The position numbers and the translations under genes are program-made. The notes below the pieces were generated by a model, which saw only the letters and a list, made by a program, of their open reading frames with translations, had not been told where the DNA came from and searched no databases. A stretch of 64,000 nucleotides of DNA from contig JAJEBZ010000095.1 in assembly GCA_022822275.1 (NCBI GenBank), forward strand, positions 14,036-78,035, given 5' to 3'. The first letter of the stretch is position 1. Each line of letters begins with the position of its first letter. Source of the stretch: Candidatus Poribacteria bacterium. Its GTDB lineage: Bacteria; Poribacteria; WGA-4E; WGA-3G. Positions 11,767 through 49,913 of this stretch are shown one piece after another.

Positions 11767-14079
11767 CTATGCCGAAATTGTATACATTTTGCCTGCTTTC
11801 GTATGGAAGTTAACAACATCCTTTGACTGAGAGTACTTTATTCGTTCCCCATCACATGTCACGGAAACAGTGCCGGGTGTTCGGACCCAGCAGTCTTCCC
11901 CAAGGTTAGATAGAATTCGTGCTTGCGTGAGTTTTCCATCCTTCCACTCCATATCAACATCAAAGCCACCACGTGCACGCAACCCTTTGACGTGTCCAGT
12001 GTTCCACGTCTTCGGAAGTGCAGGGAGTAGGTGTATATCACGTGTATGACTCTGAAGCAACATTTCAGCGATTCCAGCAGTTCCGCCAAAATTGCCGTCA
12101 ATCTGAAATGGTGGGTGCGTATCAAATAGGTTTGTCAAGGTACACTTCGCGAGAAGTGTTTGGAGATGGTTGTATGCTTCTTCTCCTTCCTCAAGCCGTG
12201 CCAAGAAGTTGATAAGCCATGCACGGCTCCATCCTGTGCCGCCGCCTCCGTGTGCTAAACGAGTTTCCAACGATTTTTTTGCTGCGGCTGCCAACTCTGG
12301 TGTACCGCGCAATGTTATCTGACAACTTGGATGGAGGGCATATAAGTGTGACATGTGTCGGTGACCAGCCTTCGGTTCATGGTAATCGCATATCCACTCT
12401 TGCAGTCTTCCAGTTTTTTCACTAATTTGAAGTGGGACGAGGTTATCAAGTGCCGAGGACAATTCTGCACGGAAGTCTTCGTCAACGCCAAGAATATCAA
12501 TACAAGCGATGCAGTTTGTGAAGAGTTCATGGATTATCTCAAGGTCCATTGTTGCTGCATAGGTGAACATCGTGCGTGTACCGTCAGGTGCATCAAAAAC
12601 GTTTTCCGGAGAGTGAGAAGGATTCGTTACCAGTTTTCCTGGAAACGCTGTGCCTTCAGGTGCTTCAACAAGAAAGTCAAGGATAAATTGGGCTGCGCCT
12701 TTCATCAATGGATACGCGCGTTCTCTCAGAAATTTTTCATCACCACCGAATTGATAGTGTTCCCAAACATGTTCACATAACCATGCGGCACCCATTGGCC
12801 AAACACCCCAAACGCCATCAGCGGGAGTGGTAAAACCCCAAATATCTGTGAGATGATGTACGACCCAACCTTCAGCCCCATAGTGTGTCTTCGCTGTCTG
12901 ATTCCCCGGTTCAACAAGAGATTCCATCAGATCAAACAAGGGTGTGTGGCATTCTGGCAGGTTACAGATTTCTGGGACCCAATAGTTCATTTGAACATTT
13001 ATATTGGTATGATAATCACTGTTCCAAGGTGCGTTCATGTGTTCGTTCCAAACACCTTGAAGGTTTGCGGGGAAACATCCCGGGCGTGAGCTCCCCATCA
13101 GTAGATAACGTCCGTATTGGAAGTAGAGCGTTACAAGGCCCGGGTCTTCCGCGCCAGTCTTCACTGCAGCCAAACGTTCATCAGTCGGTAGGTTTTCTGC
13201 ATCAGTAGAACCGAGCTCTAAATCAACACGTCTGAAAAGCGATTGATGATCTGCTATGTGTTCTGAAAGGATTGATTCATAAGTTTTCGTCTCAATAGCA
13301 TTCAGATAATTTTCGCATCGTTCATAGGGATCAGCACTTGTGTCCTGTCTATTGATGTAGTTTGTTGCAGCGGCGATATAGAATGTTGCGGCATCAGCGT
13401 CACTCACAGAGATTCTGTCATTTTTTGCTTGTGATGTGCCACCTTCAACGTTTACCTGAATATCTGCTGCAAAACGTATCACGCCACTATCACCACAATT
13501 TCCATCAAGACGCAATACGTTGTCAGAGGTTGCGGTGACGGTTGCATTTTGTTCGCGTGTCATGGTGACATCAAATTTGAGTTTTCCTGGGGAATTGCTT
13601 TCAACTCTAACAACGATAACATTGTCAACTGCTGTAGCAAAAACTTCTCTGCTAAAGATGACATCACCGTGTTGATAGGTTGTCCTTGCAATGCCGGTGT
13701 CTAAATCCAGTTCTCGTCGGTATTCTGAAACATCTGCCCTGTGTGAGAAATCAAGGAATAGATCCCCTAAAGATTGGTAGGATTTGATCCGTTTCTCTAT
13801 CCCGTGCATGGTTTCACCAGCAAGTTGGGTTGCCTCTTCGTTTTTGTCGTCAAAGAGCAGTTGTCGGACCTTTGGAAGTGCTTCTAAAGCCTTTGGGTTG
13901 TTGTTATTGTTTTCGCGAGGACCGCCATCCCAAATCGTTTCTTCGTTCAGTTGGATACGTTCACGTTGAATACCACCGAACACCATCGCACCGAGTCTTC
14001 CGTTTCCGACTGGAAGTGCGTCTGTCCACTGTTCGGCAGGTTTGTTATACCATAATGTCAGGTTATCTGTGTTTTTCAT
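11767..14079 (-). CDS. Glycoside hydrolase family 95 (alpha-L-fucosidase-like).
   Basis: The N-terminus '[28 protein letters not shown]...NEETIWDG' is the canonical GH95 start. At 770 aa the length fits GH95 enzymes. Confidence 0.8.
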
Positions 14080-14146: not shown

Positions 14147-15511
14147 TTAGGATTTATTCCGTGAATCCCAGACACATCTGAATCCGATGTTTGCCGCATA
14201 ATCAGCAATATACAATGTAGTGCGGAAATTTGTGAGTGCTGGTGCACAACTCCAACGGGCAGCAGTATGGAACGGGTCTGATGAAGTAAAAATGGTACCA
14301 CCCCGCAATACGCGATCGGTTTTAATGTCCAAAAACTTTGATATTAACATATCCCAATCCTCTTGTTTATCTACACCTGCAACTGGATTCCGTAAGGGTG
14401 AAGAAGAATAGAAATCTGCATTGAAAGCATCAAGACACCACTCCCAAACGTTCCCAACCATGTCATATAAACCGTAACTGTTGGCTGGATATTTTCCTAC
14501 TGAGATGATATTACCAACATCTTTACCGCAAAAAACCATGTTTGGATCAAGTTCACTTCCCCATGGATATTTTTGTCCAGTTTTTCCACCGCGTGCAGCT
14601 TTTTCCCATTCTGCTTCTGTTGGTAGGCGTTTTCCTGCCCATTTAGCATAAGCCATCGCCGCATACCAACTTATGTGAGTTACGGGATGATTAGCCTTTT
14701 CATCTGTATAGCTAGTCCAATCCCATTGTTTTAGATAGTCTTCATCATGATAGTTACTTAAAATCTGCTTGAATATCCTTCTTGTTTTATTCCAATTTCT
14801 CAGTCTACCTGGTTTCCGCCATTGCGGGTTTGCATCAAGAAACTTCTTATATTGTGCATTGGTCACTGGGTACTTGTCAATACAAAATGTATCGACGTAA
14901 ACTGTATGTACTGGTTTTTCTCGGTCATTTGCTTTTTCGTTGTTGTTGCCCATTTGGAACTCACCTGCGGGGATGGGTACCATGTCTTCAGGAATTGAAA
15001 CACTTATAGATGTCTCATCATCAGTATTTGGTAATTCATCTGATTCAGAGGAAGGAACCTCTTCTGTTTGGATAGGTTCGATAGGTTGTGATATTTCATT
15101 TTGAAGTGATGCAATGTGTTCAGCTCGTTTTTGTGGGTCTTTGAGTGTATCGCGTGCTTGATTTAGCACTGTTCGCCACTGTTCTTGTGTTCTACCGTCA
15201 GGACGAGGAAGTCCACCTGCACGTAACGAGTCGCTGTAGTATTTCTGATGTGCTGCATCAACACGGGTTACTATCGTTTCTTCACTTTGGTCTTGTAATT
15301 CTTCAAGGGATAATCCGAGAACTTGAAAATAATTGACACTTTCTCCAACAATTAACCCTGATGATTTTAGTATCTCATCTGCTTTTTCAACGGAGAGGTC
15401 AAACTCCCGGACCGCTCGGTGGAGCAGTCCTCTACGTTGCGCGTCAGTAATAGTTGGCGACAGTGTCTTAAGTGTGTTGATGACCTCAATGAAATCTTCA
15501 TGTTTGGACAT
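14147..15511 (-). CDS. J-like domain / FGE-sulfatase-fold fusion protein, paralog 1.
   Basis: The N-terminal segment 'NYFQVLGLSLEEL...HQKYYSDSLRAGGLPRPDGRT...LNQARDTLKDPQKRAEH' has J-domain architecture with HPD replaced by YSDS. The C-terminal segment 'HPVTHISWYAAMAYAKWAGKRLPTEAEWEKAARGG...YPWG...GNVWEWCLD...RVLRGG...GFRCV' is an FGE-sulfatase (SUMF1/PvdO) fold lacking the catalytic Cys pair. Confidence 0.75.
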   Translation of the reverse strand: MSKHEDFIEVINTLKTLSPTITDAQRRGLLHRAVREFDLSVEKADEILKSSGLIVGESVNYFQVLGLSLEELQDQSEETIVTRVDAAHQKYYSDSLRAGGLPRPDGRTQEQWRTVLNQARDTLKDPQKRAEHIASLQNEISQPIEPIQTEEVPSSESDELPNTDDETSISVSIPEDMVPIPAGEFQMGNNNEKANDREKPVHTVYVDTFCIDKYPVTNAQYKKFLDANPQWRKPGRLRNWNKTRRIFKQILSNYHDEDYLKQWDWTSYTDEKANHPVTHISWYAAMAYAKWAGKRLPTEAEWEKAARGGKTGQKYPWGSELDPNMVFCGKDVGNIISVGKYPANSYGLYDMVGNVWEWCLDAFNADFYSSSPLRNPVAGVDKQEDWDMLISKFLDIKTDRVLRGGTIFTSSDPFHTAARWSCAPALTNFRTTLYIADYAANIGFRCVWDSRNKS

Positions 15512-15559
15512 GTGTTGATTGCCTTTAAGATTCTAATTTTCAGTATGTATCAAAGTAGG

Positions 15560-16939
15560 TTATAAAGATTTAAATTTTAGCTGCACATCCCATGCACATC
15601 GGAATCCGACGTTAGTAGCAAATTCTGTTGATTGTCGGGGTAAGACATTTGTTAAATAAACTGCGGTGAGAAGCGGTGAACGCCCACGTCGTATAGCTGT
15701 CTGAACCGGTTCTGATGAAGTAAACTGTGTTCCACCTCGCAATACGCGATCGGTTGTAATGTTGTGAGTCTTGAAAAGTAATAAATCTAAATTTTCCTTC
15801 GTATTTTCATCGGAAACTGAATTCGGTGTTGACGTAGAACCGTAGTAATCGGCATCATATTCATCAATACACCATTCCCAGACGTTCCCTACCATGTCAT
15901 ATAAACCGTAGTTGTTTGGTGGATATTTTCCGATAGAAGTTGTCTTACCGACCTCCTTTCCGCAATATGCCATGTCTGAATTGAGCTGATTACCCCATGG
16001 ATATTTTTGTCCGTTTTTTCCACCGCGAGCAGCCTTTTCCCATTCCGCTTCTGTCGGTAGACGTTTTCCTGCCCATTGTGAGTATGCCATCGCTGCATAC
16101 CAGCTAACGTGAGTAACCGGATGGTCAGCCTTAGACCTCGGAAATTCGTTCCCGTTCCAATGTCTTAGGTAGTTAACACCGTGGTATTTCTTGAATATAG
16201 AGAGCATGATTTTCTTGATTCTATTCTGTCTACTCCACCACTTCGGGGGTTTTTTAGCCCATTGCTTATTTTCATTAACAAACCTCTTATATTGTGCATT
16301 GGTAACAGGATATTTGTCTATGTAGAAAGCATCTACATAGACTTCAAGAGGTGACAATTTACGCATTTGTGATTTATCATTATTGCTACCCATTTGGAAC
16401 TCACCTGCTGGTATGTACACCATATCATCTGTTATAGAGTGTGATAAAGATGTCTCTTCAGTTTTGTATAATTCATCCGGTTCAGAGGAAGGAACCTCTT
16501 CTGTTTGGATAGGTTGTGATATTTCATTTTGAAGTGATGCAATGTGTTCAGCTCGTTTTTGTGTGTCTTTTAGTGTATCACGTGCTTGATTTAGCACTGT
16601 TCGCCACTGTTCTTGTGTTCTACCGTCAGGACGTGGGAGTCCGCCTGCCCGTAACGAGTCGCTATAGTATTTCTGATGTGCTGCATCAATACGGGTTGTT
16701 ATAGCATCTTCACTTTGGTCTTGTAATTCTTCAAGGGATAATCCGAGAACTTGAAAATAATTGACACTTTCTCCAACAATTAACCCAGATGATTTTAGTA
16801 TTTTATCAGCTTCTTCAACGGAGAGCTCAAACTCCCGGACCGCACGGTGGAGCAGTCCTCTACGTTGCGCGTCAGTAATAGTTGGCGACAGTGTCTTAAG
16901 TGTGTTGATGACTTCAATGAAATCTTGGTGTTTGGACAT
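15560..16939 (-). CDS. J-like domain / FGE-sulfatase-fold fusion protein, paralog 2.
   Basis: The N-terminal 120 aa are near-identical to paralog 1, and the overall architecture is the same. Confidence 0.75.
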   Translation of the reverse strand: MSKHQDFIEVINTLKTLSPTITDAQRRGLLHRAVREFELSVEEADKILKSSGLIVGESVNYFQVLGLSLEELQDQSEDAITTRIDAAHQKYYSDSLRAGGLPRPDGRTQEQWRTVLNQARDTLKDTQKRAEHIASLQNEISQPIQTEEVPSSEPDELYKTEETSLSHSITDDMVYIPAGEFQMGSNNDKSQMRKLSPLEVYVDAFYIDKYPVTNAQYKRFVNENKQWAKKPPKWWSRQNRIKKIMLSIFKKYHGVNYLRHWNGNEFPRSKADHPVTHVSWYAAMAYSQWAGKRLPTEAEWEKAARGGKNGQKYPWGNQLNSDMAYCGKEVGKTTSIGKYPPNNYGLYDMVGNVWEWCIDEYDADYYGSTSTPNSVSDENTKENLDLLLFKTHNITTDRVLRGGTQFTSSEPVQTAIRRGRSPLLTAVYLTNVLPRQSTEFATNVGFRCAWDVQLKFKSL

Positions 16940-16978
16940 GTGTTGATTTGCCTTTAAGATTGTAATCTGCTGAAGTTC

Positions 16979-18160
16979 TCAAAATAGATATAGAGTTTCT
17001 GACTTAAGTTTTATATCCCAAGCACATCGGAATCCGATGTTTGCCGAGAAACTTGATAAGTGTTTTGAATATACTGAGGTGTAAAAGGGAGAACGACCAC
17101 TTCGTAAGGCTGTCTGAATAGGTTCAGAGGTTGTAAAAAGAGAACCCCCTCGCAAGACGCGATCCGTTGAAACGTTACTATAATAGGAGCATAATTGTTG
17201 CAACTCCTTTTCCGTGTTTACACCGGCAACTGGATTTCTATCCGAAGCAGTTGCAAAGAAATTTGGCACATATTCATCAAGACACCACTCCCAGACGTTC
17301 CCTACAATATCGTGCAAACCGTAGTTATTCGGAGGATATTGTCCTATAGCAGTGGTCACTCCAACCTTATTTCCACAATATGCCATGCTATAATTGAGTT
17401 CATCTCCCCATGGGTATTTTTGTCCTGTTAATCCACCGCGAGCAGCCTTTTCCCATTCTGCCTCTGTTGGCAAACGTTTACCTGCCCACTCAGCATAAGC
17501 CATTGCAGCGTACCAACTCACATGCGTTACAGGATGGTCGGCTTTTCCAATCGGGAAGTTGTCCCCGTTCCAATGTTTTAAGTAATCTCCATCATGAAAG
17601 TTTCTATAAATAGATAACAGCTTATTCCTATTCCATTTTGATGGTTTGCTCCATTTTGGGTTGACTTCAATGAATTCCTTATATTGTGTATTGGTAACAG
17701 GATATTTGTCTATGTAAAAAGTGTCTACATAGACCTTATGTGCTTTTGGTTTGCGGTGAGTTGTGCTCTTGTTGTCTATTTGGAATTCACCAGCGGGAAT
17801 ATGTACCATATTGTCTGGAACTGAAAGTGTAATGGATGTTTGTTCAGGTGCCAGTATATCTTTTTGAATGCTGGGATCTACAGAATGTATGTCTGCATCT
17901 TTTATCATTGCGATGTGTTCAGTAAGTTTTTGTGGGTCTATTAGGGTGTCGCGTGCTTGATTGAGAATTGTTCGCCACTGTTCCTGTGTTCTACCGTCAG
18001 GACGAGGAAGTCCACCTGCCTGCAAAGATTCACTGTAACATTTCTTATGTGCTTCATAAACGATAGCAGCTATTGTGTCCTCGCTTTGGTTTTGGAATTC
18101 TTCTATAGATAGTCTTAACACTTCAAAGTAGTTTAGTTCATCACCGACCATCAACCCCAA
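16979..18160 (-). pseudogene. J-like/FGE-fold paralog 3, N-terminally truncated and possibly still expressed.
   Basis: The reading frame continues upstream to 18221 ('LVPTTCGVTSITDIQRRGLLKQAVQNYDLSVEEASEILKS') and then hits a TGA stop. The conserved 'MSKHEDFIEVINTLKTL' N-terminus is missing because the DUF2971 gene occupies that position. The only available starts are an internal TTG or ATG. Confidence 0.55.
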
Positions 18161-18219
18161 AGACTTCAGTATTTCAGAGGCTTCTTCAACGGATAGGTCA
18201 TAATTCTGTACTGCTTGCT

Positions 18220-18972
18220 TCAGCAGTCCACGTCGTTGAATATCTGTAATACTGGTGACTCCACAAGTTGTAGGAACCAGTCAGGAACTAAATGTGCAAC
18301 GACTATTTCTTGAATCAACAATTCAAGATTAACTTCATAGTTAATACCCATACCGTAGATATCCTCCCATTTGGTGATTTCCTCAATGGATATTTCCTGA
18401 ATACTACTCCTTAATTCGGTTATATCAATCCCGGAAGGAGGTTTCTGAACAATAGCTCTCACTTCTCTTTCAGACTCAAAGTTTTTTCTTTTGTATAGAT
18501 ATGGTACTAACCCGTTATCTTCTGGTATGGTATCATTATCGTAGTCAACATATTGAACCTGTCCAATATGAATTTGTTCGTTAGTTATAAAACACTTTTC
18601 GAGAGCATCAGGATTTGTTCTAATAGCAATACCACTATTCTGATTAGCATACCGATTCCACATTGACTCCGATTCATATTTGCTTTCGTGCCAGCAACTA
18701 ATAAATGTATAACGCGTTAAACGTTCCATTACGTGAGCATACTTGAATATATCTTCTTTAGAAAGATTTGGAGTTAAAGTAGTACGTAAAGTTGCATTTT
18801 TCTTTGGAAACGATCCCTCAAAAGGATCACCAAGTTTGTCTGCTCTGGCGAAAAACAGAGTGCGATTTTCCAAAATTGATACAAATTTCGTGAAGTCCAT
18901 GTATCTCCACAAAATAGCGTCTAAGGTAGGTGGTTTGTAAAATTCGAGAATTTTAGAATTTAGATCATCCAT
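18220..18972 (-). CDS. DUF2971-family protein.
   Basis: 'LWRYMDFTKFVSILENRTLFFARADKLGDPFEG' matches the DUF2971 signature (LYRY...FNDPFE), which is recalled from memory and not searched. The gene is inserted inside the J-FGE paralog array. Confidence 0.5.
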   Translation of the reverse strand: MDDLNSKILEFYKPPTLDAILWRYMDFTKFVSILENRTLFFARADKLGDPFEGSFPKKNATLRTTLTPNLSKEDIFKYAHVMERLTRYTFISCWHESKYESESMWNRYANQNSGIAIRTNPDALEKCFITNEQIHIGQVQYVDYDNDTIPEDNGLVPYLYKRKNFESEREVRAIVQKPPSGIDITELRSSIQEISIEEITKWEDIYGMGINYEVNLELLIQEIVVAHLVPDWFLQLVESPVLQIFNDVDC

Positions 18973-19074
18973 GAAATGTTGTTAGATAGACAAAATTAAC
19001 TTGTTACATTGACTTTTATTTTTAGAGTTTCCATCAGGCTAACCAGCCGTTCTAATATACGTGGTTTTGAAATT

Positions 19075-19416
19075 TCAGGTAGATTGCCTTACCTCTGCCT
19101 GTTCTCGCAAAAACTTCTGTTCTTTTTTCAGGATAGTGATGGATTCAGTGATAGTAGAATCTGCTAAAGCTTTTTTTAGAATTGCATTAAATATAAGCTT
19201 CATATCATCTTGATTATCTTGTCCGTCAAGCAAATCAAAGTAATCTACATGCTTATCCTGAATCTGCTGCAAAAGAACAGCTGACTCCCGCCCAGCGGCA
19301 TCCACGACAACAGATCGGAGCAGATCATCATTGTCAATTTTTAAGAGTTCCTCAGGTCCAAGTGTGATTTTTACACGTTCCGCTATGTAGGTTGGCATTT
19401 CCTTTATATGATACAT
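19075..19416 (-). CDS. Hypothetical acidic protein.
   Basis: This is a 113-aa ORF co-oriented with the DUF2971 gene in the array-interrupting cassette. It has no recognisable motifs. Confidence 0.3.
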   Translation of the reverse strand: MYHIKEMPTYIAERVKITLGPEELLKIDNDDLLRSVVVDAAGRESAVLLQQIQDKHVDYFDLLDGQDNQDDMKLIFNAILKKALADSTITESITILKKEQKFLREQAEVRQST

Positions 19417-19661
19417 TATATTTCCTCTATCTATGTTGTTAGAAATTGACTCATAAGGATATGATCCATTGGGAGAATCCTTTTTTACTTTAACTCAAGA
19501 AACACAAGGAATTGAAAACAGTTCTAATATTATAGTAATCAACCGAATTTTAGCATAGGATTTGACAAATAGCAATTTAAATTGGTGAAGTACTACTATA
19601 AAGGTGATAGTGCATAAATATAATGCCATGTATAGTATGAAGACGAAAAGAGGATTGTCGT

Positions 19662-21035
19662 TTACAAAGTTGCTTCCTTTACACAACGAAAACCGAAAAT
19701 CGGCAGTGTGTCTACGGGACTACTTCTGAATCGGTATGCGACCCGTGCCCCCTGTGCATCCACACTCCATGAACCTCCGCGCAACACGCGCGAAGTCTTG
19801 ATGTCCCTAAAGTTTTCGGTTGTCCACTCAATATTATTCGCATCAAAAAATGGATTGCGTGTTGGTGAATTTGCGTAGAAATCTGCATTATACGCATCAA
19901 GACACCATTCCCAAACGTTACCACACACATCATATAAACTGTAGTTGTTTGGTGGATAACGTCCAACAGGAGTAGTGCCACGTGTGTGATAGAAGTAGTT
20001 TGCTTTGCCACGGCCGATTGAATCTCCCCATGGGTATTTCTTTCCCTCTAAACCGCCGCGCGCTGCTTTTTCCCATTCTGCTTCTGTTGGAAGACGTTTG
20101 CCGACCCATTCTGCATACGCCATCGCTGCGTACCAACTGATCCGAGTGACTGGGTGGTCATCTTTTCCATCCGGAAAGTCATCACCTGCCCAATGCCTCA
20201 AGTAGGATCCGTTGTGGTGGGTTATAGAGATATGTTTTTTGAACCATTGCGGTTTACGCCACTACGGGTTTGCATCAATGAATTCTTTATACTGTGCATT
20301 GGTTACAAGGTATTTATCTATGCAGAACGTGTCAGTATAGACTGTATGTGCGGGTTTTTCACGTTCATTTGCCTTCTCCTCATTACTTCCCATCCGAAAT
20401 TCTCCTGCTGGAATGAGTGTCATATTATCGGGTACATCAACGATTAACTGGATCGATTCTGGGGTAGCAGTTTGAACATTTTGCCTTGCTGGTAGTGTGT
20501 TCTCTTCTGGAATTGCCGATTCTGCAGTGTTCGGTTCGGTAGGTTGAGATTCGGTATTTATTTGTTGAATATCATCTGCGGGTGTCTCAAATGTGTCTCC
20601 TTCAGACAGAAATGTATCCAAATATGCTTTTCGTTTTTGTGGGTCTATTAGGGTGTCGCGTGCTTGATTGAGAATTGTTCGCCACTGTTCTTCTGTTCTA
20701 CCATCAGCACGGGGACGACCGCCAGCACGCAACGAAGCGGTGTATAGTCTTTTGTGAGCAACCTCTACACGGTTCGCGATTGTCAATTCGTCTAACCTTT
20801 GAATTTCATCTATTGAGAATCCCAAGACCTCAAAGTAATCAATCCGTTCACCGATAGTCAGTCCTGCCGCATTGAGGATATTCATTGTTTCATCAATAGT
20901 GAGCCCATGCTGCTGTACCCCTAACCGCAAAAACCCCTTGCGTTGTTCGTCCGTTATAGTGGGTGAGACTGCTTTGAGTTGATTGATGAAGACAATAAAT
21001 GTATCGCGTTCGCGCATGTTCAGTCCTTTTGTCAA
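19662..21035 (-). pseudogene. J-like/FGE-fold paralog 4, disrupted by an in-frame amber codon.
   Basis: The ORFs 20262..21035 and 19662..20201 are in the same frame. The translation reads 'FIDANP*WRKPQW', where intact paralogs have 'DANPQWRKP'. The plus-strand 'cta' at 20262-20264 is the TAG. This is a single CAG-to-TAG change. Confidence 0.7.
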
Positions 21036-21103
21036 GATTGATACTATTTTTTCGTCAAGATTGATACTATTTTATAGTAACCTTTAGAATTAATTGGATA
21101 TTA

Positions 21104-21210
21104 TGTTCGGTTCGGTTAGGAAACCGAACCTACCGGGGTTATAGCACAAACTGTTATTTTGTATCCGCATTTGCACAAACTAACAGTTTGTGCTACAAAA
21201 GTGCCCCATT
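21104..21210 (+). repeat. MITE-like element, family C, copy 1.
   Basis: A 'ttatgttcggttcggttaggaaaccgaacc' arm is followed by the palindrome pair 'GTAGCACAAACTGTTA...CACAAACTAACAGTTTGTGCTAC'. The same structure recurs at 28333-28446, with fragments at about 8410-8475 and about 26440-26495. Confidence 0.55.
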
Positions 21211-21246
21211 AATTATATGTTTTAGTATAGTAACTCAAACGGAGAT

Positions 21247-22473
21247 TTATGTCGTAATAGACTTTACACAACGAAAACCGATGTTAGAATTTGCATAAGT
21301 CGGTAGCGCGGCAGAACGTTTTGCGGTTCGTATGTTCTGCACCTTATTGTACCAAGAACCGCCACGCAGTAAACGTAGTGCTTTAGAATTTCTATAGCTA
21401 TTTACTATTCTGCTAATGCTGTCCCCTGTGACGGGATTTTCACTTGGTGAAGATGCATAGAAGTGTTCATCCCACTCATCAAGGCACCATTCCCACACAT
21501 TCCCCGACATATCATATAAATCGAACTCATTTGCCGGATACTCTCCTACGGGTGTTGTAGAACCGATATTTTTGCCGAAGTTTGCCTTTGTGGTATCTAT
21601 GAGATCTCCCCATGGAAACTTCTTACCAGCTAAGCCACCACGAGCAGCCTTTTCCCATTCCGCTTCTGTTGGTAAACGTTTACCAATCCATTCTGCATAC
21701 GCCATAGCAGCATACCAGCTAACGTGAACTACCGGATGATTCGCTTGTCCATCCAAATAGTTGTTCCTATGCCAATGGTGGAGGAGGTACCCATCGTGGT
21801 ATTTTGCGGGTAGAAACTTACTCAATCCTTGGGGTTTGTTCCATTGCGGGTTTGCATCAACGAATGCCTTGAATTGTGCATTTGTTACCGGATATTTGTC
21901 TATATAAAACGCATCCACAAAGACAGTGTGTACAGGTTGTTCATCATTAAAAGCTTCGTTATCACTGCCACCCATTTCAAATTCACCTGCAAGAATAAGT
22001 TCCATGTCATCGTCAAGATGTAAAGGCACTGTGGGGGTGTCTACTAATGCTTCTTCGGTATGTTGTACTGTTGTAAGGTGTGCGTTCCGTTTCTGCGGGT
22101 CTATTAACACATCCCTTGCTTGATTTAGGAGTGTCCGCCACTGTTCTTCTGATTTGCCATCTGCACGCGGACGTCCACCTGCCTGCAATGATGTGCTGTA
22201 CAAGTTTTTATGTGCAGTTTCTACGCGTTCAGTGATAGCCACTTCATCTAAACTTTGGATCGCTTCAACTGTTAGTCCTAAGATTCCAAAATAATCCTCT
22301 TGTTCTCCAATCACTAAACCAGATGAATTTAGAATGTCAGCTGCATCATCAATAGATATGTCAAACTGTTGCACAGCTCTACGGAGCAATCCTTTTCGTT
22401 GTTCATCAGAAATTGTCGGTGAAACCGTTTTAAATTCGTTAATGAGGGTTATATATTCATTACGTTTTGACAT
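21247..22473 (-). CDS. J-like domain / FGE-sulfatase-fold fusion protein, paralog 5.
   Basis: It has the same architecture as the other paralogs, including 'YFGILGLTVEAI...HKNLYSTSLQAGGRPRADGKSEEQWRTLLNQARDVLIDPQKR' and 'HPVVHVSWYAAMAYAEWIGKRLPTEAEWEKAARGG'. Confidence 0.75.
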   Translation of the reverse strand: MSKRNEYITLINEFKTVSPTISDEQRKGLLRRAVQQFDISIDDAADILNSSGLVIGEQEDYFGILGLTVEAIQSLDEVAITERVETAHKNLYSTSLQAGGRPRADGKSEEQWRTLLNQARDVLIDPQKRNAHLTTVQHTEEALVDTPTVPLHLDDDMELILAGEFEMGGSDNEAFNDEQPVHTVFVDAFYIDKYPVTNAQFKAFVDANPQWNKPQGLSKFLPAKYHDGYLLHHWHRNNYLDGQANHPVVHVSWYAAMAYAEWIGKRLPTEAEWEKAARGGLAGKKFPWGDLIDTTKANFGKNIGSTTPVGEYPANEFDLYDMSGNVWEWCLDEWDEHFYASSPSENPVTGDSISRIVNSYRNSKALRLLRGGSWYNKVQNIRTAKRSAALPTYANSNIGFRCVKSITT

Positions 22474-22534
22474 TAGATATTTCTCTTTGGTAAATAGTTT
22501 TTTTGGACAGAATTGAGTCGGTAAAACGTCAAGG

Positions 22535-23836
22535 TTAAACTGGCATCACACAACGGAACCCTATGCTGAAACAAGTATACTTAGGTGTATTACGTGAACG
22601 GTATGCTACCCTAACGTTCTGAGGTATACTCACACAGGAACCGCCGCGCATAATCCGAAAAGACCTAATGTCAGTAAAGTTATTCACAGTTTGGACTATG
22701 CTATCACCTGAAAACGGATTATCCCGTGGGGACTGCATATAGAAGTTTTTATTCCATGCGTCCAGGCACCATTCATACACATTGCCTATCATATCATATA
22801 AACCGTAGTTGTTCGGGGGATATTTACCGACAGTTGTTGTTTTACCGATGTATGCGTCATAGTTTAAATAACTTGCATCAATCGTACTTCCCCATGGATA
22901 TTTTTCGCCTATCAAACCACCGCGTGCAGCCTTTTCCCATTCTGCTTCGGTAGGAAGACGTTTGCCCATCCACTGTGAGTATGCCATCGCAGCATACCAA
23001 CTCACCCAAGTTGCTGGATGTTGATCTTCTCCTCTTGGGTAATCGTTTTTATTCCAATTTTTCAGGTATTCCCCATCGTGAAATTCTCTGAGGATATTTG
23101 CTGTATCAATCTTACCCGACTCATACCATTTCAATGGTTTGCGCCATTGCGGATTCTCATCAATAAATGCTTTAAATTGTGCGTTTGTTACTGGATATTT
23201 ATCCATATAGAAAGCATCTACATAAACAGTATGTATAGGTTTTTCATCGTTGAATGCGTCTCTTTCATCACTTCCCATCTGAAATTCGCCTGCAGGAATG
23301 AGAACCATGTCATCTTTTTCTAATGGAATAGAGGGAGTATGCTGCTCCACCGAAACTGATTGTGTCTGTTCAGAAGGGGTGTTTTCTATCTCTGATATAG
23401 ATTCATTGGAAGGAACTGCACCGTTTTGGAGAAGTGCAATATATTCTTGTCGTTTTTCTACGTCTATAAGTACCTCACGAGCCTGATTCAGGAGCGTTCG
23501 CCACTGTTCTTCTGTTCTACCGTCAACACGGGGACGACCGCCTGCACGCAACGAAGCGGTATATAGTTTTTTGTGTGCAACCTCTACGTGGTTCACGATT
23601 GCCAATTCGTCTAAACTTTGAAGTTCGTCAATAGAGAAACCTAACACTTCAAAGTAATTAATCTGTTCACCGATTGTCAGTCCTGCCGCATTGAGGATAT
23701 ACGTTGCTTCATCAATAGTGAGCCCATGTTGCTGTACCCCTAACCGCAAAAACCCCTTGCGTTGTTCATCGGTTATAGTGGGTGAAGCAATTTTGAGTGC
23801 GTCTATTATCGCAATAAAATCATCCCTGTTTGACAT
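22535..23836 (-). CDS. J-like domain / FGE-sulfatase-fold fusion protein, paralog 6.
   Basis: It has the same architecture as the other paralogs, including 'NYFEVLGFSIDEL...HKKLYTASLRAGGRPRVDGRTEEQW' and 'HPATWVSWYAAMAYSQWMGKRLPTEAEWEKAARGG'. Confidence 0.75.
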   Translation of the reverse strand: MSNRDDFIAIIDALKIASPTITDEQRKGFLRLGVQQHGLTIDEATYILNAAGLTIGEQINYFEVLGFSIDELQSLDELAIVNHVEVAHKKLYTASLRAGGRPRVDGRTEEQWRTLLNQAREVLIDVEKRQEYIALLQNGAVPSNESISEIENTPSEQTQSVSVEQHTPSIPLEKDDMVLIPAGEFQMGSDERDAFNDEKPIHTVYVDAFYMDKYPVTNAQFKAFIDENPQWRKPLKWYESGKIDTANILREFHDGEYLKNWNKNDYPRGEDQHPATWVSWYAAMAYSQWMGKRLPTEAEWEKAARGGLIGEKYPWGSTIDASYLNYDAYIGKTTTVGKYPPNNYGLYDMIGNVYEWCLDAWNKNFYMQSPRDNPFSGDSIVQTVNNFTDIRSFRIMRGGSCVSIPQNVRVAYRSRNTPKYTCFSIGFRCVMPV

Positions 23837-23927
23837 AAGTTCATTTCCTTTGAATCAGATTTGAAGGAGATGGTAGGACAAACAAAAAACACTGCTAACA
23901 TAACAATATTTAAATTCAGCACCGCAC

Positions 23928-25523
23928 TTATTCAACGATTAGGTCTTGTAGGTCAGTTTTTGCCTGTGCAACCTCTTCTTCATTGAGGGTCGGTCTATCA
24001 ATAATGGAAAAGATGTCGTAAACGGCGGTTGCATCATCGTCAGAAAGAGATGTTGCAGTTACCTCAAGATTTTGGTGCAAGTTGTATTTGTAGATAACTT
24101 CAATTGGAGACCCTTGTGGCAACCCCGTTGGCAGCTCAAGCGTGCATTCGCCCAATTTGTACTCATCAAAGAGATCGATATCTTCCTTGAATTGATCCTG
24201 TTCAAGCCCCTGTACAACTTCAATTAACACCGAAGGTTGATTGCGGTCTACTGTCAAAAACTTATCTCCGACTTCACATGGCACAGCAGTCATTTTAGGT
24301 ATCATGACATGGATGATGTGCTCGCGTTGTGCGTTTAGGACGACAAGTCCGAGGTTATGTGTTGCCCCATCAGTTACAGTCACCTTTGGAGCACCGTCAG
24401 GCCCGATAAACCTTTCAATGACAGCGTCAGGTATATCTGTTGTTTCGGTTTCACCTTCGGATATTTGGCGGAGTGTTCCCTGAATAGCAGCACCGATTGC
24501 CACGACTTCATCTGGGTTGACTTCATAAGGATTGATCTCTTTACCACTGCTTGCGGCTATCATTTCCCGCACCATCGGCATCCGAGTTGACCCGCCTACC
24601 AACAAGATTTTGTCTATATTTTCCCATGTCATGTCTGCTTCCGTAAGGACAACATTGCACAAAACACGGCATCTTTCAAGCAGGTCTGCGGTGAGTTGTT
24701 CAAACTTTTCTCTGGTCAATTCCACCCGTGTTGTCTTGCCGTTGTATCCGCAAACGATGAGGGCGCGCTGCCTTAATGACAAAGATTCTTTTGCGGTGAT
24801 CGCATCCAGTTGTAAGTCTTGATACGTGTGAAGGTCTTCTAACGGATTTTCCCCGTGTTCAATTTCATACATCTCCGCAACATGCGTGATGATCTTATCA
24901 TCCCAATCCTTACCGCCAAGTCTGTGGTCACCGTTTGTAGCGAGCATCTGGATTTCAGTTTCTGACACTTTCATGATCGTCACATCAAACGTACCACCAC
25001 CAAGGTCAAACACGAACACATTTTGGTTGGTACCCAATTGGTCCATACCGTAAGCGAGCGCGGCGGCGGTTGGTTCGTTGAGGACTTGCAGGACGTTCAA
25101 CCCAGCAATTTTCCCCGCGTTTCGGGTTGCTTCGCGCTCCGCGTCATGAAAATAGGCGGGAACAGTGATAACAGCATCTGTGATTTCTTCACCCAGATAT
25201 GTTGCGGCATCCTGCTTGAGTTTTGTCAGAATGATTGCGGAGAGTTCTTCGGGGGAATAGTTCTTTGCGTCAAATGTGCGAAAGTATTCTGCCTTGGACT
25301 TACCCATCTCCCGTTTGACAAACTCAACAATCTGTTCGGGAACTGCTCTGGCGTTTTGCTTAGCGATTTTGCCGACGGTTACGAGGGTGTCCTCAAACAT
25401 AATGACCGACGGTGTAATACGTTCACTTTCCAAGTTTGGAATGATCTCTGCCTGTCCATGCTCATTGATGTGTGCTATTGCAGAGAATGTCGTTCCGAGA
25501 TCAATCCCAACGACTTTACCCAT
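23928..25523 (-). CDS. Atypical Hsp70-family chaperone (short, lid-less DnaK/HscC-like paralog).
   Basis: The N-terminus 'MGKVVGIDLGTTFSAIA' is the phosphate-1 motif. 'VFDLGGGTFDVTI' and 'ILLVGGSTRMPMV' are canonical Hsp70 NBD motifs. At 531 aa the protein is too short for a full DnaK C-terminal lid. The start overlaps the stop of the upstream GrpE-like gene. Confidence 0.8.
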   Translation of the reverse strand: MGKVVGIDLGTTFSAIAHINEHGQAEIIPNLESERITPSVIMFEDTLVTVGKIAKQNARAVPEQIVEFVKREMGKSKAEYFRTFDAKNYSPEELSAIILTKLKQDAATYLGEEITDAVITVPAYFHDAEREATRNAGKIAGLNVLQVLNEPTAAALAYGMDQLGTNQNVFVFDLGGGTFDVTIMKVSETEIQMLATNGDHRLGGKDWDDKIITHVAEMYEIEHGENPLEDLHTYQDLQLDAITAKESLSLRQRALIVCGYNGKTTRVELTREKFEQLTADLLERCRVLCNVVLTEADMTWENIDKILLVGGSTRMPMVREMIAASSGKEINPYEVNPDEVVAIGAAIQGTLRQISEGETETTDIPDAVIERFIGPDGAPKVTVTDGATHNLGLVVLNAQREHIIHVMIPKMTAVPCEVGDKFLTVDRNQPSVLIEVVQGLEQDQFKEDIDLFDEYKLGECTLELPTGLPQGSPIEVIYKYNLHQNLEVTATSLSDDDATAVYDIFSIIDRPTLNEEEVAQAKTDLQDLIVE

Positions 25524-26229
25524 CTATACTGCCTCCTTTCTCACTGGAAGGAGATTCATTTATTGAGTTTTCAGATTTTTGGGTGTCGGGAGTATATCGA
25601 AATATTGTCACCTCTTCTGGTCGGAACACTTTCTCTCGCCAATGAAACCCAATTTTATGAACTTCTGCGATTTTCTGATCCTGTTGTGGCTCATCTGACG
25701 GTATTACCTTGCGCGTCTTGTGCAAATGCCGATCAAGCGTGTCCAGAGACTCCTTATAGGGTGTCACATCCATACGGTATAGTACCTCTTCAAGTTTAAA
25801 CCGAAAGTTCTCCACATTTTTCCGAAATTGGTTGAGTTCATCTGGCAGCGTTTCTTCATGCCCGCTCAATATATCGTCAAGTTGTGTTTCAAGCATCCCG
25901 TAACTATCATATAGTTGGATTAGGTTGTGGATAATCGGTTTGTGAAGTACTTCAAGTAGAAAACTTTCCTTATATTCTTTCATTTCAGCATATATTTTGT
26001 CAAACATCTCTGTCTGATTCTGGTTTCGTGCAATCTGCTTTTCGAACAGATCTTGTAGTGAAGATAAGGTTTGATTTACCTGTGCCAGGTCTCTTTGTTG
26101 TGGCATTTCCAGATCATCCAGTTGTGCATCCGAATCCATTTCAACATTATCACTTTTTTCTACTAAATCTGAATCTGTGTCTATATCGGTACTTAGTTTT
26201 ATATCATCTTCATTCAATTGCTTTTCCAA
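25516..26229 (-). CDS. GrpE-like nucleotide-exchange factor.
   Basis: A coiled-coil region is followed by 'FDKIYAEMKEYKESFLLEVLHKPIIHNLIQLYDSYGMLE', which parallels the GrpE 'ENLRRRTERE..A..FA.EKF..DLLPV.DNLERAL' block. The C-terminal 'VHKIGFHWREKVFRPEEV' parallels the GrpE 'QKGY..GR.LRPAMV' block. The likely start is the TTG at 26229, which follows the RBS AAGGAGG. The longer ORF from 26295 begins inside the promoter -10 box. Confidence 0.5.
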   Translation of the reverse strand: MEKQLNEDDIKLSTDIDTDSDLVEKSDNVEMDSDAQLDDLEMPQQRDLAQVNQTLSSLQDLFEKQIARNQNQTEMFDKIYAEMKEYKESFLLEVLHKPIIHNLIQLYDSYGMLETQLDDILSGHEETLPDELNQFRKNVENFRFKLEEVLYRMDVTPYKESLDTLDRHLHKTRKVIPSDEPQQDQKIAEVHKIGFHWREKVFRPEEVTIFRYTPDTQKSENSINESPSSEKGGSIDG

Positions 26230-26286
26230 AATAGAACCCTCCTTACAACGAGTTTTTCTTAGGGGGGTAGTTCCAAGTCTCTTTTG

Positions 26287-26315
26287 ATTATACAACGAAT
26301 TAGGTAGTCTGTCAA
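26287..26315 (-). promoter_or_regulatory. Consensus sigma70-type promoter for the grpE-like/hsp70/J-FGE operon.
   Basis: On the minus strand the sequence reads TTGACA, then a 17-nt spacer, then TATAAT. The RBS AAGGAGG and the GrpE-like start lie about 50 nt downstream. Confidence 0.6.
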
Positions 26316-26558: not shown

Positions 26559-27839
26559 TTAACTTTTCTGCCACGGGACACTTCCTGCCTTCTGTTTTTC
26601 TTCCTGAAACAAACGTCCCATTTCCCTATAAAGTTTGTTGTTTGTGCGTGAAGTGTCATTTGCTTCCATCGAATCGCTTGATAGGTCATATAGTTCCAGT
26701 GGCTCAAAAGGACTATTGTGTAGCAACTTGATGTCCCCCTGTCGTATTGCGTGTTGACACTGTGCGTGAAAGCGGTTTCCCCCCTCTCTGCGTATCCAGT
26801 ATAGCAGACGATCAGAGAAATCCTGTTTTTCTCCTTGAAGTGTTTGCCAAATAGAACGCCCCTCAATTTCATGTTTGACAGGAATATCAGCGACTTCACA
26901 CACTGTCGGCAAGAGATCCATAAGCATTGCTACCTGATCTGTAACGTGTCCTTCTGGTATGTGGTCTTTCCACATTGCACATGTAGGGACTCGGATACCT
27001 CCTTCGTACATCTGTCCTTTTTGTCCACGGAGCGGACCATTGTTTGCCCCAACCTGCATTGCCCCGCCATTGTCTGACGTGTAAATCACCAGCGTATTGG
27101 AGAGTTGACCGGTTTCCTCAAGTGAGTCCAGCACACGTCCGATACCGGCATCCATGTGTTCAACGAGAGCAACGTATTTTGCGCGTTGATCTGAAATCTC
27201 CGGTTCACGTTTTCGTACTCTTTCAATCCAGTCATCGGGTGGTTGGATAGGTGTATGTGGTGCGTTGTAAGCGAGATAGAGGAAAAATGGATGGGATGTG
27301 TGTGCATGCGTGCGAATAAAGTCTACGCTCCAATCCGAGAAAAGATCTGTGGCGTGTCCTCTCGGATCAATGGTTTCAAAACCGCGCCGCATGTAGTTAT
27401 TGCCATGTCGGAGATGTGTGTAATAGTCGTCCATCATATCGCCGAGGAAACCGTGAAAATGGTCAAACCCGCGTTTGCACGGGTGATTCTCATCTTCAAG
27501 TCCCAAATGCCACTTCCCGATAAGTGCCGTGCGATAGTCTTTCTGTTTCAACATTGAAGGCAGTGTGATTGCGTCCTGTTGAAAATAACCCCAGTTGTTC
27601 TGGGCATGCGTGCGTATTACACCGGGGACACCGACTCTATCAGGATAGCGTCCGGTCATAAGCGATGCACGACTTGGAGAACATACAGAGGAGTTTGCAT
27701 AAAATTGCGTTAAGCGAGTGCCTTCTGCGGCAATTCTATCAATATTAGGGGTTTGGATTGAGGGGCCGTCATGAGCTGATATATCGCCATATCCGTGATC
27801 GTCTGCAAGGATGAGTAAAATGTTTGGTGATTTTGCCAT
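26559..27839 (-). CDS. Cys-type sulfatase (arylsulfatase family) without a signal peptide.
   Basis: 'NILLILADDHGYGD' is the sulfatase N-terminal metal-binding motif. 'SSVCSPSRASLMTGR' contains the C-x-P-x-R formylglycine target. The start at 27839 follows an AGGAGA RBS. The N-terminus MAKSPNILLIL has no hydrophobic leader. Confidence 0.8.
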   Translation of the reverse strand: MAKSPNILLILADDHGYGDISAHDGPSIQTPNIDRIAAEGTRLTQFYANSSVCSPSRASLMTGRYPDRVGVPGVIRTHAQNNWGYFQQDAITLPSMLKQKDYRTALIGKWHLGLEDENHPCKRGFDHFHGFLGDMMDDYYTHLRHGNNYMRRGFETIDPRGHATDLFSDWSVDFIRTHAHTSHPFFLYLAYNAPHTPIQPPDDWIERVRKREPEISDQRAKYVALVEHMDAGIGRVLDSLEETGQLSNTLVIYTSDNGGAMQVGANNGPLRGQKGQMYEGGIRVPTCAMWKDHIPEGHVTDQVAMLMDLLPTVCEVADIPVKHEIEGRSIWQTLQGEKQDFSDRLLYWIRREGGNRFHAQCQHAIRQGDIKLLHNSPFEPLELYDLSSDSMEANDTSRTNNKLYREMGRLFQEEKQKAGSVPWQKS

Positions 27840-33732: not shown

Positions 33733-34749
33733 CTATCTTGCTTGAATAATTGAGCCGTAACGAACAATCTGAGTCCGCTGTGTTGGTAACCAATAGGGTG
33801 GGCAATATGCACCAAAAGTTTCAATTGTTGCGACTAATGCAAATCTTTCACAGCCGAAAAGTTCTTGGTTACGTGTGTCAGATATTTCAGGTATTTCTCT
33901 TCGTGCAAAAACGCGGTCGTAGGGAAGATCTTTAACCAATGCTAATCTGTCATTGTTGTAGATCGGTCCAGATAATGGTTTTGCCCAAGTAGCTTTTACG
34001 TCAGGACGTGACCTAACTTTAAAGGAAGCAAGTTGACCATATCCCAATGTAGTTTTCTTACCAAGTCCAATCTGTTCCTTGATAGCAAAATCTAACAACG
34101 TTTCAACTCCCCCTTTATCACCGCGAAAGAAAAAGACGTAACTTTTAGTAAGTGGAAAATAGAGACGATTGTCAAGTGCTTTCGTTGAACCACCACCCGT
34201 ATTCAGTTTATTCTTCAGACCAATCGGACGACCAAACGGTTCGTTTACTCTTCGTCGTAACGGAATAGAATCTACAACTTCAGGATATACCTTAAATTGC
34301 TGACTATTGGAAGTGAAAAATGCTCCTACAGGAATAAGGACATCATCGTTGACATCAACGGGTAAACCTACTGAACAATCATACAGTGGCTTTAACCTTG
34401 TCAACGGAATTTTGCGTAACGGAAGTTCAAAGTCTATCCACATTTCTTGATCACGTAACGCTATATTCCATTGCCATAACAACTGTTGGGAAAGTTCGGG
34501 ATTTCCATTTAAGGCGTTACCCAATGCAGCCCGGAAGGCAACATAACTGAGAAATCCATCAAGCGTAGGAAGCCCAATGACAGGTGCATTTGACTTCTCA
34601 GCAGTAGTCACTGCGGATGTAGCTAAATTTAATCGAAGTTCGTATATTTCCTTTCCTGTCTTCACTCCGAATCGGTACTGTGCATCTTCGAGTATTTTTT
34701 TGATAGACAAATCAGGCTGTAACACTGAATTAGATCTACGCGACTTCAT
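33733..34749 (-). CDS. Cas5-like RAMP (Csf3/Cmr3-like).
   Basis: The N-proximal 'GLPTLDGFLSYVAFRAALG' resembles the Cas5 'P-P-S-T-x-x-G-x-L-R' block. The C-proximal glycine-rich loop is 'GLGKKTTLGYGQ'. Its start is an ATGA overlap with the upstream Cas7-like stop. Confidence 0.5.
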   Translation of the reverse strand: MKSRRSNSVLQPDLSIKKILEDAQYRFGVKTGKEIYELRLNLATSAVTTAEKSNAPVIGLPTLDGFLSYVAFRAALGNALNGNPELSQQLLWQWNIALRDQEMWIDFELPLRKIPLTRLKPLYDCSVGLPVDVNDDVLIPVGAFFTSNSQQFKVYPEVVDSIPLRRRVNEPFGRPIGLKNKLNTGGGSTKALDNRLYFPLTKSYVFFFRGDKGGVETLLDFAIKEQIGLGKKTTLGYGQLASFKVRSRPDVKATWAKPLSGPIYNNDRLALVKDLPYDRVFARREIPEISDTRNQELFGCERFALVATIETFGAYCPPYWLPTQRTQIVRYGSIIQAR

Positions 34750-35708: not shown

Positions 35709-35709
35709 G

Positions 35710-36180: not shown

Positions 36181-36191
36181 GGCGAATCCTC

Positions 36192-42727: not shown

Positions 42728-42782
42728 TATAAGAGTATTAGCAGAAATCCAGTCGTTGTGTGACTCATTACGGAGGATTCTG

Positions 42783-48681: not shown

Positions 48682-48747
48682 CAAAAACATATTCTTTTGA
48701 TAATCTAATAGCAAAACTGATATATTCCTAACTTAGGAGAAATTTCT

Positions 48748-49785: not shown

Positions 49786-49913
49786 ATCGGTTTTAGGTTT
49801 TTTTATGTAACGATTAGCGATAGCAGTGAATATGTTTGCTACTACCGCTAATTGTTATATACTGCAGAACATTGCTGTGTTCGTAGTACATAAATGTATA
49901 AGGGATTACTGTT

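Follow-up and report, generated by a model that had tools for sequence, protein, structure and literature searches.

The 64-kb stretch of Candidatus Poribacteria DNA analysed here (denoted the window) carries, on the minus strand of the studied region 14147-26315, an operon that we interpret, with moderate confidence, as encoding a dedicated Hsp70 machine that is specific to Candidatus Poribacteria and works with client-specific modular adaptors. In the mechanism that we propose, transcription from a strong constitutive-type promoter would supply a GrpE-like exchange factor together with a lidless Hsp70 and a series of adaptors, each built from a constant handle, a flexible low-complexity linker and a variable head. 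The handle, composed of a subdomain A and a J-fold subdomain B with an R-x-D motif, would bind the private Hsp70 at a rewired interface in which R-x-D meets a glutamine at the position of DnaK R167, and this interface would insulate the pair from the housekeeping DnaK and DnaJ. The head would capture a particular target, which the Hsp70 would then bind, hold or remodel. The heads encoded in the window are predicted to have the C-type-lectin-like fold of the formylglycine-generating enzyme (FGE); because they have lost the copper-binding cysteines and differ in class-specific loops, they would bind instead of oxidise, like human pFGE/SUMF2.

Organization of the operon

Read from the promoter, the gene order is GrpE-like gene, Hsp70, P1, P2, P3, a 113-aa gene, a DUF2971 gene, P4, P5 and P6, where P1 to P6 denote the adaptor paralogs and N-module their N-terminal module, the handle. 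The features are as follows.

26315..26287, minus strand: sigma-70 consensus promoter TTGACA-17-TATAAT, 12/12 match, preceding the GrpE-like gene
25516..26229 (open reading frame as listed, 25516..26295), minus strand: GrpE-like nucleotide exchange factor; Pfam GrpE, E=3.3e-11
23928..25523, minus strand: lidless Hsp70, 531 aa; Pfam HSP70, E=1.7e-118
22535..23836, minus strand: P1, 433 aa; N-module at 23426-23836, made up of subdomain A and a J-like subdomain B with RVD at 23522-23530, then a linker and a putative pseudo-FGE head
21247..22473, minus strand: P2, 408 aa, intact; PF03781, E=2.3e-67; paralog alignment
19662..21017, minus strand: P3, interrupted; a single frame across two open reading frames, with an in-frame TAG at 20262-20264
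19075..19416, minus strand: 113-aa protein of no family; no Pfam, NCBIfam or PADLOC match
18220..18972, minus strand: DUF2971 protein, 250 aa; Pfam DUF2971, E=2e-6; PADLOC PDC-S31, E=5.5e-17
16979..18214, minus strand: P4, 5'-truncated; ~18 first codons missing, N-module from profile position 19, first possible start TTG 18160
15560..16939, minus strand: P5, 459 aa, intact; PF03781, E=7.6e-58
14147..15511, minus strand: P6, 454 aa, intact; paralog alignment

The first-pass annotation, made from the DNA letters, had described a perfect sigma-70 promoter on this strand, followed by a GrpE-like gene and an overlapping gene for a 531-aa Hsp70, and all of this was borne out. No other 12/12 match to the promoter consensus occurs in the region, where promoter-like matches overall are at chance level (34 observed, 31 expected), and the promoter is kept at 12/12 in 18/31 related loci, ~85-92 bp upstream of the GrpE-like start. 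Both gene products were confirmed by Pfam. The listed TTG start of the GrpE-like gene falls within the -10 box; its true start is likely the TTG at 26229, eight bases past an AAGGAGG. The ATG of the Hsp70 gene overlaps the stop of the GrpE-like gene by 8 bp (ATGGGTAA).

The Hsp70 and the GrpE-like protein

Against the NCBIfam DnaK equivalog model, the Hsp70 scored 415 bits, below the cutoff of 648, and it gave no equivalog-level match to HscA or HscC. It aligned to solved DnaK structures over residues 1-489 only, that is, over the ATPase domain and the beta substrate-binding domain; past the equivalent of DnaK residue 489 just ~20 residues follow, so that the alpha-helical lid is missing. The catalytic residues (DnaK D8, K70, E171, D194, T199 and D201) were invariant in 119-120 of 120 relatives, and 118 of the 120 carry glutamine at the position of DnaK R167 (here Gln146, codon 25086-25088). 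The interdomain linker reads VTVTD, compared with VLLLD in DnaK, and the family is further marked by a ~20-residue deletion in subdomain IB, a ~22-residue insert ahead of the linker and a deletion within the acidic 206-217 patch. Several copies of the Hsp70 occur in single genomes, each with different partners.

DnaK R167 contacts the aspartate of the HPD motif of DnaJ on both genetic and structural grounds: the exchange R167H in DnaK reportedly suppresses D35N in DnaJ, and the contact is visible in the DnaK-J-domain complex 5NRO.

The GrpE-like protein reached 43.6 bits with the Pfam GrpE model (gathering cutoff 25.8) over profile positions 10-163 of 165, placing it in that family, and scored far under the NCBIfam GrpE equivalog cutoffs. 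The low equivalog score of the Hsp70, its missing lid, the glutamine in place of R167 and the several copies per genome argue for a non-housekeeping chaperone, and a dedicated pair of Hsp70 and GrpE-like protein, proposed in the first-pass annotation as a private one, is thus supported by the sequences.

The N-terminal module of the adaptors

A profile of 21 N-modules compared with all PDB sequences ranked J-type co-chaperones highest (Jac1, E=0.065; HscB, E=0.27), and the NCBIfam HscB model matched the module weakly, below its cutoff (E=5e-4). An AlphaFold2 model computed from the alignment (predicted local distance difference test score, pLDDT, 86) consists of two parts, residues 1-57 forming the three-helix subdomain A and residues 59-137 the helical subdomain B. 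As modelled, subdomain B has the four-helix J fold, in which helices II and III form an antiparallel hairpin. At the position of the HPD loop, ~200/203 adaptors read R-x-D (RPD 99, RAD 51, RSD 20, and others), HPD occurring once; R103, D105 and G106, like the QWR that comes next, do not vary. The J nature of the module is argued from fold and context, not from hidden Markov model (HMM) matches. Since the J fold is present but both the HPD motif and a match to the family HMM are missing, we use the term J-like, and the earlier description of a J-domain-like module holds for the fold. The non-HPD module may stimulate the ATPase of its Hsp70, for which the conserved adjacency of the genes and a natural fusion of the two proteins are indirect evidence.

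The N-module is found in neither Pfam nor NCBIfam, and its family is small: when 1.84 billion representative proteins were scanned in full with HMMER, only 134 clusters had the module. In many members, subdomain B stands at the N-terminus without subdomain A. Of 71 long members, 20 have the handle joined to an FGE-fold head and 11 to ankyrin repeats; fusions to WD40, HEAT and peptidoglycan-binding domains occur as well. Arrays themselves contain handle-WD40 proteins of ~460 aa and handle-helical-Ig-ankyrin proteins of 680-885 aa. The system is thus not confined to FGE-type heads, as WD40 and ankyrin heads share both handle and arrays. At paralogous Hsp70 loci, the partner handle proteins bear multi-pass membrane segments.

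In two loci (L055:6605-10411 and L057:6599-10411), the N-module match lies at the C-terminal end of an open frame of ~1270 codons, with a stop directly after it. This arrangement represents either a C-terminal handle on a large protein or an artefact of calling open reading frames from stop to stop.

Conservation of the cluster

A scan for N-modules in one genome per species (GTDB), with the other members sought by local HMMs, yielded 58 loci, and all those with a taxonomic name belong to Candidatus Poribacteria. A lidless Hsp70 gene lies upstream on the same strand in 46 of them, and the remaining loci are mostly distal parts of long arrays; the GrpE-like gene is present in 30/58. The number of adaptor (N-module) genes per locus ranges from 1 to 10. 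Compared with six in the window, syntenic relatives hold 3, at least 5, 7 and 8, with frameshifted copies and an insertion sequence (IS) element among them. The neighbourhood of Hsp70, GrpE-like and handle-head genes that had been proposed for comparison across genomes is accordingly retained in much of the set.

The link between N-module and Hsp70 is strengthened by a natural fusion. At L064:2375-4303, a single 642-aa protein joins J-like subdomain B, at its N-terminus, to a lidless Hsp70 with glutamine at the R167 position; we read it from its sequence as a Rosetta-stone fusion of the J-like module and the Hsp70. An AlphaFold2 model of this protein calculated without an alignment had a pLDDT of 34, too low for the docking geometry to be read. 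In locus L063, distant J-like proteins also follow a GrpE gene and a gene for a 522-aa Hsp70, whose relatives, where named, are from Poribacteria. Together with the 46 loci, the fusion upholds the connection of the N-module to this particular Hsp70 that the first-pass annotation had drawn. Its further remark that it did not recognise the combination as a described system agrees with our finding no description of this cluster in the literature searched.

Two side observations concern these loci. The L064 fusion is flanked by genes for an FGE-fold membrane protein, an ankyrin protein, transposases and large WD40 proteins, and at L003:16553-17501 a DDE transposase, distinct from the one in the window, is inserted within a syntenic adaptor array.

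The FGE-type heads

All six paralogs of the window combine the N-module with a head of the PF03781 (FGE-sulfatase) fold, matched at E=1e-56 to 1e-67. The nearest relatives of the heads are genuine FGEs (tcFGE, scFGE and human SUMF1; E=1e-36 to 1e-52, lowest with a family profile) and SUMF2; more distant are PorK, EgtB, PvdO and TvpA, the variable protein of a diversity-generating retroelement (DGR). The two Cu(I) ligands of tcFGE, C269 and C274 (C336/C341 in the human enzyme), are both lost: 'GGSFLCHESYCNRYR' of tcFGE aligns to 'GGSCV---SIPQNVR' in P1, and a CxxxxC cysteine pair after GGS was present in 0/188 heads examined. The bis-cysteine Cu(I) site is indispensable for catalysis by FGE (PMC6676471). 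Because the copper-ligand cysteines are absent, the heads appear to be FGE-derived pseudoenzymes that cannot make formylglycine by the known mechanism.

Among the tcFGE residues that contact the CxPxR peptide, position S290 retains S or T, W228 is retained in most cases, and R276 is variable. In tcFGE, the groove wall that binds CxPxR is formed by W84, F86, W108 and W109 (PMC6676471), in a segment that could not be aligned to the heads. Sulfatase maturation, suggested earlier as the obvious candidate pathway, is not supported in the sense of formylglycine generation: the catalytic cysteines are missing from 188/188 heads, and the groove segment is unalignable. No canonical FGE motif was found in 1.2 Mb of sampled Poribacteria loci, a partial sample that is uninformative on this point.

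An analysis of variability over 205 full-length adaptors placed the most variable columns in four surface segments, one of them the former active-site loop directly before the GFRC motif. Clustering separates the heads into ~10 major classes. Each has one member per genome and is represented in 11-23 genomes, and the order of classes along the arrays is partly conserved (for example A-K-C-H-J-D-G). Hypervariable columns are 14% identical between classes and 34-53% identical inside a class. Judged by this pattern, the paralogs are ancient, with class-specific loops, and stable distinct specificities fit better than a fast arms race. The diversification of the paralogs that the first-pass annotation had suspected thus takes the form of ~10 ancient head classes differing mainly in surface loops.

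The handles have a partly separate history. Those of P5 and P6 are 92-98% identical at the nucleotide level, compared with 50-75% for the heads, and P1 and P3 behave likewise, a pattern that we attribute to local recombination or gene conversion within these two pairs. General concerted evolution of handles within genomes was considered and rejected: pairs from the same locus but of different class are 57% identical, pairs from different loci 56%.

The adaptor array in the window

Six paralogs, 48-69% identical to each other, were found where the first-pass annotation had counted seven, probably by including both halves of P3. Four are intact, one (P3) is interrupted by a TAG nonsense codon and one (P4) is 5'-truncated. 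All lie on the same strand, as described before, but the run is not unbroken, since two unrelated genes lie between P3 and P4. The adaptors carry no signal peptides. The TAG of P3 stands in place of a conserved CAA/CAG glutamine codon, and P3 is probably a recent pseudogene. Around its start, a 23-bp tandem repeat of 2.1 copies (21027-21073) falls within the 229 bp that separate P3 from P2, an unusually wide spacing.

The two genes lodged between P3 and P4 also occur elsewhere. Homologs of the 113-aa protein are found in the arrays of L006/L058, L023 and L054, and DUF2971 homologs inside the arrays of six other loci; one or both genes recur, co-oriented, in L010, L011, L019, L032, L046, L054, L006/L058 and L023, as a rule directly ahead of an adaptor of class D/G. 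That a single insertion event had brought them in and truncated P4 was considered and rejected, because the pair recurs co-oriented in six other arrays. The two genes could be an accessory component of the system or a defence gene lodged in the array.

Flanking genes

The operon is bordered on both sides by genes that recur in related loci.

26559..27839, minus strand: Cys-type sulfatase; Pfam Sulfatase, E=1e-65; CSPSR at 27683..27669
11767..14079, minus strand: GH95 glycoside hydrolase without signal peptide, 67 bp past P6; Pfam GH95, E=3.6e-180; given as context only

The CSPSR motif confirms that a CxPxR sulfatase is encoded immediately upstream. The protein has no signal peptide; it starts MAKSPNILLILADD and enters directly into the sulfatase fold. 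Among 50 Hsp70 loci, 43 have an ortholog of this sulfatase upstream in the same orientation; in the lineage of L038, L044, L048 and L050, it abuts the Hsp70 gene with nothing between. In the window it forms its own transcription unit, the promoter of the chaperone operon lying between the two. A LamG3 gene is found upstream in 26 loci, and GH95, DNA methylase, GNAT and ADH genes downstream in 13-22 loci each (GH95 in at least 22/50), counts that are too low because long arrays push downstream genes beyond the 10-kb flanks.

We had considered the adjacency of the sulfatase as strong functional evidence and downgraded it, as the LamG3, GH95, methylase, GNAT and ADH flanks are equally syntenic. 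With these other flanks conserved and a promoter separating the sulfatase from the operon, its position cannot be told apart from inherited gene order. The leading candidates for clients are still sulfatases or further proteins that take part in the degradation of sulfated glycans, since the heads descend from FGE, a cytoplasmic CSPSR sulfatase is a conserved neighbour and Poribacteria are relatively enriched in sulfatases (PMC7081726).

Further genes of the window were noted. At 33733-38561 on the minus strand, four co-oriented genes were noted whose weak matches are to Csf2/Cas7 (E=7e-14) and Csf3/Cas5 (E=2e-6) of type IV CRISPR systems and to the RAMP superfamily, along with a 789-aa protein without family; no CRISPR array was detected in the 64-kb window. 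A DDE-type IS transposase (5788-7104, plus strand) lies 7 kb past the array. A 739-aa protein (42756-44975, plus strand) combines a sigma-70 factor of the extracytoplasmic function type (regions 2 and 4) with an inactive peptidase M16 domain, and its gene adjoins a stand-alone M16-like gene at 41423-42727. Four tandem GFO/IDH/MocA oxidoreductase paralogs of ~345 aa (47647-52126, plus strand) follow a gene for a periplasmic binding protein (46434-47624). At 52322-63223 on the plus strand, four tandem genes encode large proteins of 889, 899, 909 and 604 aa; a scan of three of them showed FlgD-Ig domains and C-terminal sorting domains of type IX secretion, the N-terminal parts having no family match.

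Comparison with described systems

By mode of action, the closest counterparts of the system would be HscA-HscB, E. coli HscC with DjlB/DjlC, and the diversified J-protein networks of eukaryotes. In HscA-HscB, which serves Fe-S cluster assembly, and in HscC with DjlB/DjlC, a non-housekeeping Hsp70 likewise adjoins its own J-type co-chaperone, which targets it to particular clients. HscB and Jac1 are also the best sequence-level matches of the N-module, and HscC reportedly has a shortened C-terminal lid, as does the Hsp70 here. The J proteins of the HscA/HscC type, however, keep HPD, whereas here R-x-D is combined with glutamine at the Hsp70 R167 position; arrays of up to 10 co-chaperones, exchangeable heads and a GrpE-like gene in the operon are further differences.

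Canonical DnaK-DnaJ-GrpE shares with the cluster the joint encoding of the same three roles, and the ATPase residues and the beta substrate-binding domain are conserved. Unlike canonical DnaK, the Hsp70 has no lid, a VTVTD linker, the subdomain IB deletion and glutamine for R167. Unlike canonical DnaJ, the adaptors have no HPD and no PF00226 match, and FGE-fold, WD40 or ankyrin heads take the place of the Gly/Phe or zinc-finger client-binding domains.

A close parallel for the heads is human pFGE/SUMF2 (PDB 1Y4J), likewise an FGE fold without the catalytic cysteine pair, which is among the best solved relatives and matches the family profile at E=2e-46. pFGE binds sulfatases and FGE without modifying either. 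It is a stand-alone protein of the endoplasmic reticulum lumen and, unlike the poribacterial adaptors, has no J-like handle, private Hsp70 or paralog array. No counterpart of the CxPxR groove-wall segment could be aligned in the poribacterial heads.

The variable proteins of DGRs, such as TvpA of Treponema denticola (PDB 2Y3C), also use the FGE fold as a scaffold on which ligand binding is diversified, with variation in C-terminal loops before GFRC. TvpA matched the heads much more weakly (E=5e-22) than true FGEs did, no reverse transcriptase domain was present in window open reading frames of at least 150 aa, and no relevant template repeat was found. The diversity of the heads appears to have arisen by ancient gene duplication, not through a reverse transcriptase.

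Kaur, Burroughs, Iyer and Aravind (2020; PMC7159879) described GAP1-N2 GTPase systems with Hsp70, GrpE and DnaJ-fused FNIII, and FGS-domain effectors in VMAP ternary systems. These likewise bring together an Hsp70, a GrpE and a J domain fused to a binding module, and use FGS and repeats as non-enzymatic recognition modules. They are not the same as the system described here. In contrast to them, no GTPase domain occurs among the window neighbours or in the gene lists of related loci, and MoxR, vWA, STAND and effector-associated domains are not in the locus. The published systems are distributed over actinobacteria, firmicutes and cyanobacteria, whereas the present one is a fixed chromosomal feature of one phylum with a non-canonical J-like domain.

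Weighing the alternatives

Several observations weigh against a client-delivering Hsp70 machine. At the level of sequence, the tie of the N-module to J domains is weak (E ~0.07), and no window paralog matched Pfam DnaJ PF00226 at E<=0.1. J-like proteins without HPD usually fail to stimulate the Hsp70 ATPase, Pam16/Tim16 being an example. The GrpE-like gene is missing from 16/46 Hsp70 loci, and one Poribacteria lineage has in its place, between sulfatase and Hsp70, a gene for a 299-aa ankyrin-repeat protein (L004:8951-9850; also L031, L036, L039, L043, L045, L047, L056 and L061). Even a profile failed to align the heads to the tcFGE segment with W84, F86, M99, A101, W108 and W109, and the sulfatase adjacency belongs to a wider syntenic block. 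Finally, no canonical DnaK was found in 1.2 Mb of sampled Poribacteria loci, a partial sample that is uninformative on whole genomes.

A more specific form of the proposal, which we offer as a tentative possibility, is that of an orthogonal, 'addressable' Hsp70, in which R-x-D handles, matched to the R167Q lidless Hsp70, would have been joined by gene duplication and domain shuffling to a set of pseudo-FGE, WD40 and ankyrin heads, so that a single ATPase could be sent to many defined targets. Such a machine might serve either a holding and quality-control network for sulfatases, assembled from dead maturation enzymes, or an array of intracellular receptors that capture foreign proteins of phage or host for neutralisation by the Hsp70.

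The main rival, which strikes us as rather unlikely, holds that the cluster functions in conflict or immune surveillance, the heads being intracellular receptors for phage or host proteins and the Hsp70 providing nucleoside triphosphate-dependent thresholding or disassembly, by analogy with the chaperone-centred conflict systems known from multicellular or social prokaryotes. Published systems do combine FGS/FGE-fold, WD40 and ankyrin heads with an Hsp70/GrpE/J theme (PMC7159879), and the variable copy number of the arrays (1-10), their pseudogenes and IS insertions, the recurrent DUF2971 gene with its match to the PADLOC candidate PDC-S31 and the DNA methylase and type IV-like cas genes nearby would all be at home in a defence locus. 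Yet the cluster occupies a fixed syntenic position across the phylum and is no mobile island, and its head classes, ancient, one per genome and with partly conserved loops, speak for stable specificities and not for rapid turnover. The operon encodes no effector (nuclease, protease, pore, TIR or the like), the core genes (Hsp70, GrpE-like and adaptors) have no significant PADLOC match, the viral contigs searched contain no N-module, and a GTPase, STAND or MoxR-vWA partner is absent.

That the N-module is instead a tag, by which a private Hsp70 keeps ankyrin, WD40 and FGE-fold proteins export-competent or assembled for the envelope or the sponge host, seems to us decidedly unlikely. It would account for the fusion of the handle to ankyrin, WD40, HEAT, peptidoglycan-binding and multi-pass membrane segments, and for the occurrence of all named matches in sponge-associated Poribacteria; but the conserved cluster contains no secretion-system genes, the adaptors are without signal peptides, and the adaptor would become the client, whereas a J-fold domain normally acts on Hsp70 and is not its substrate.

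Very improbable is an active enzyme, that is, J-FGE fusions that convert the CxPxR cysteine while the private Hsp70 holds sulfatases unfolded. The kinship of the heads with genuine FGEs (E=1e-36 to 1e-52), the signal-peptide-free CSPSR sulfatase upstream in 43/50 loci, sometimes abutting the Hsp70, and the sulfatase-rich phylum (PMC7081726) would suit it. It founders on the absence of tcFGE C269/C274 from 188/188 heads, given the requirement for the bis-cysteine Cu(I) site (PMC6676471), on the variable R276 and unalignable substrate-groove wall, and on the WD40 and ankyrin heads that share the same handle and arrays. Ordinary housekeeping dnaK and grpE genes adjacent by chance to unrelated FGE-domain genes, which domain annotation alone (Hsp70, GrpE, FGE family) would permit, are effectively refuted by the DnaK equivalog score (415 against 648 bits), the missing lid, the R167 glutamine and altered linker, the several Hsp70 copies per genome with differing partners, the adjacency kept in 46/58 loci, the J-like-Hsp70 fusion and the J fold of the N-module.

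Implications

The dedicated Hsp70 machine favoured here would be a specialised system of Hsp70, J-like protein and nucleotide exchange factor, whose surprises are a non-HPD J-like domain with a compensating change in the Hsp70, arrays of pseudoenzyme heads and a natural fusion; its function we infer from these sequences. If correct, it would provide a natural Hsp70/J pair that is insulated, functions in the absence of HPD although this motif is supposed to be essential, and carries a matching change at the R167 contact. The rules of J-Hsp70 specificity would become directly testable, and parts for engineered orthogonal chaperone targeting would be at hand. The heads would constitute a bacterial, chaperone-tied counterpart of the enigmatic pseudoenzyme pFGE/SUMF2. 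An addressable Hsp70, whichever of the two types of target it serves, would represent a new principle of chaperone targeting in bacteria. Part of the 'eukaryote-like' ankyrin/WD40 repertoire of Poribacteria would then belong to an intracellular chaperone network and not to host manipulation. Being phylum-wide, strongly promoted and expanded, the cluster is likely to be important for these uncultivated symbionts.

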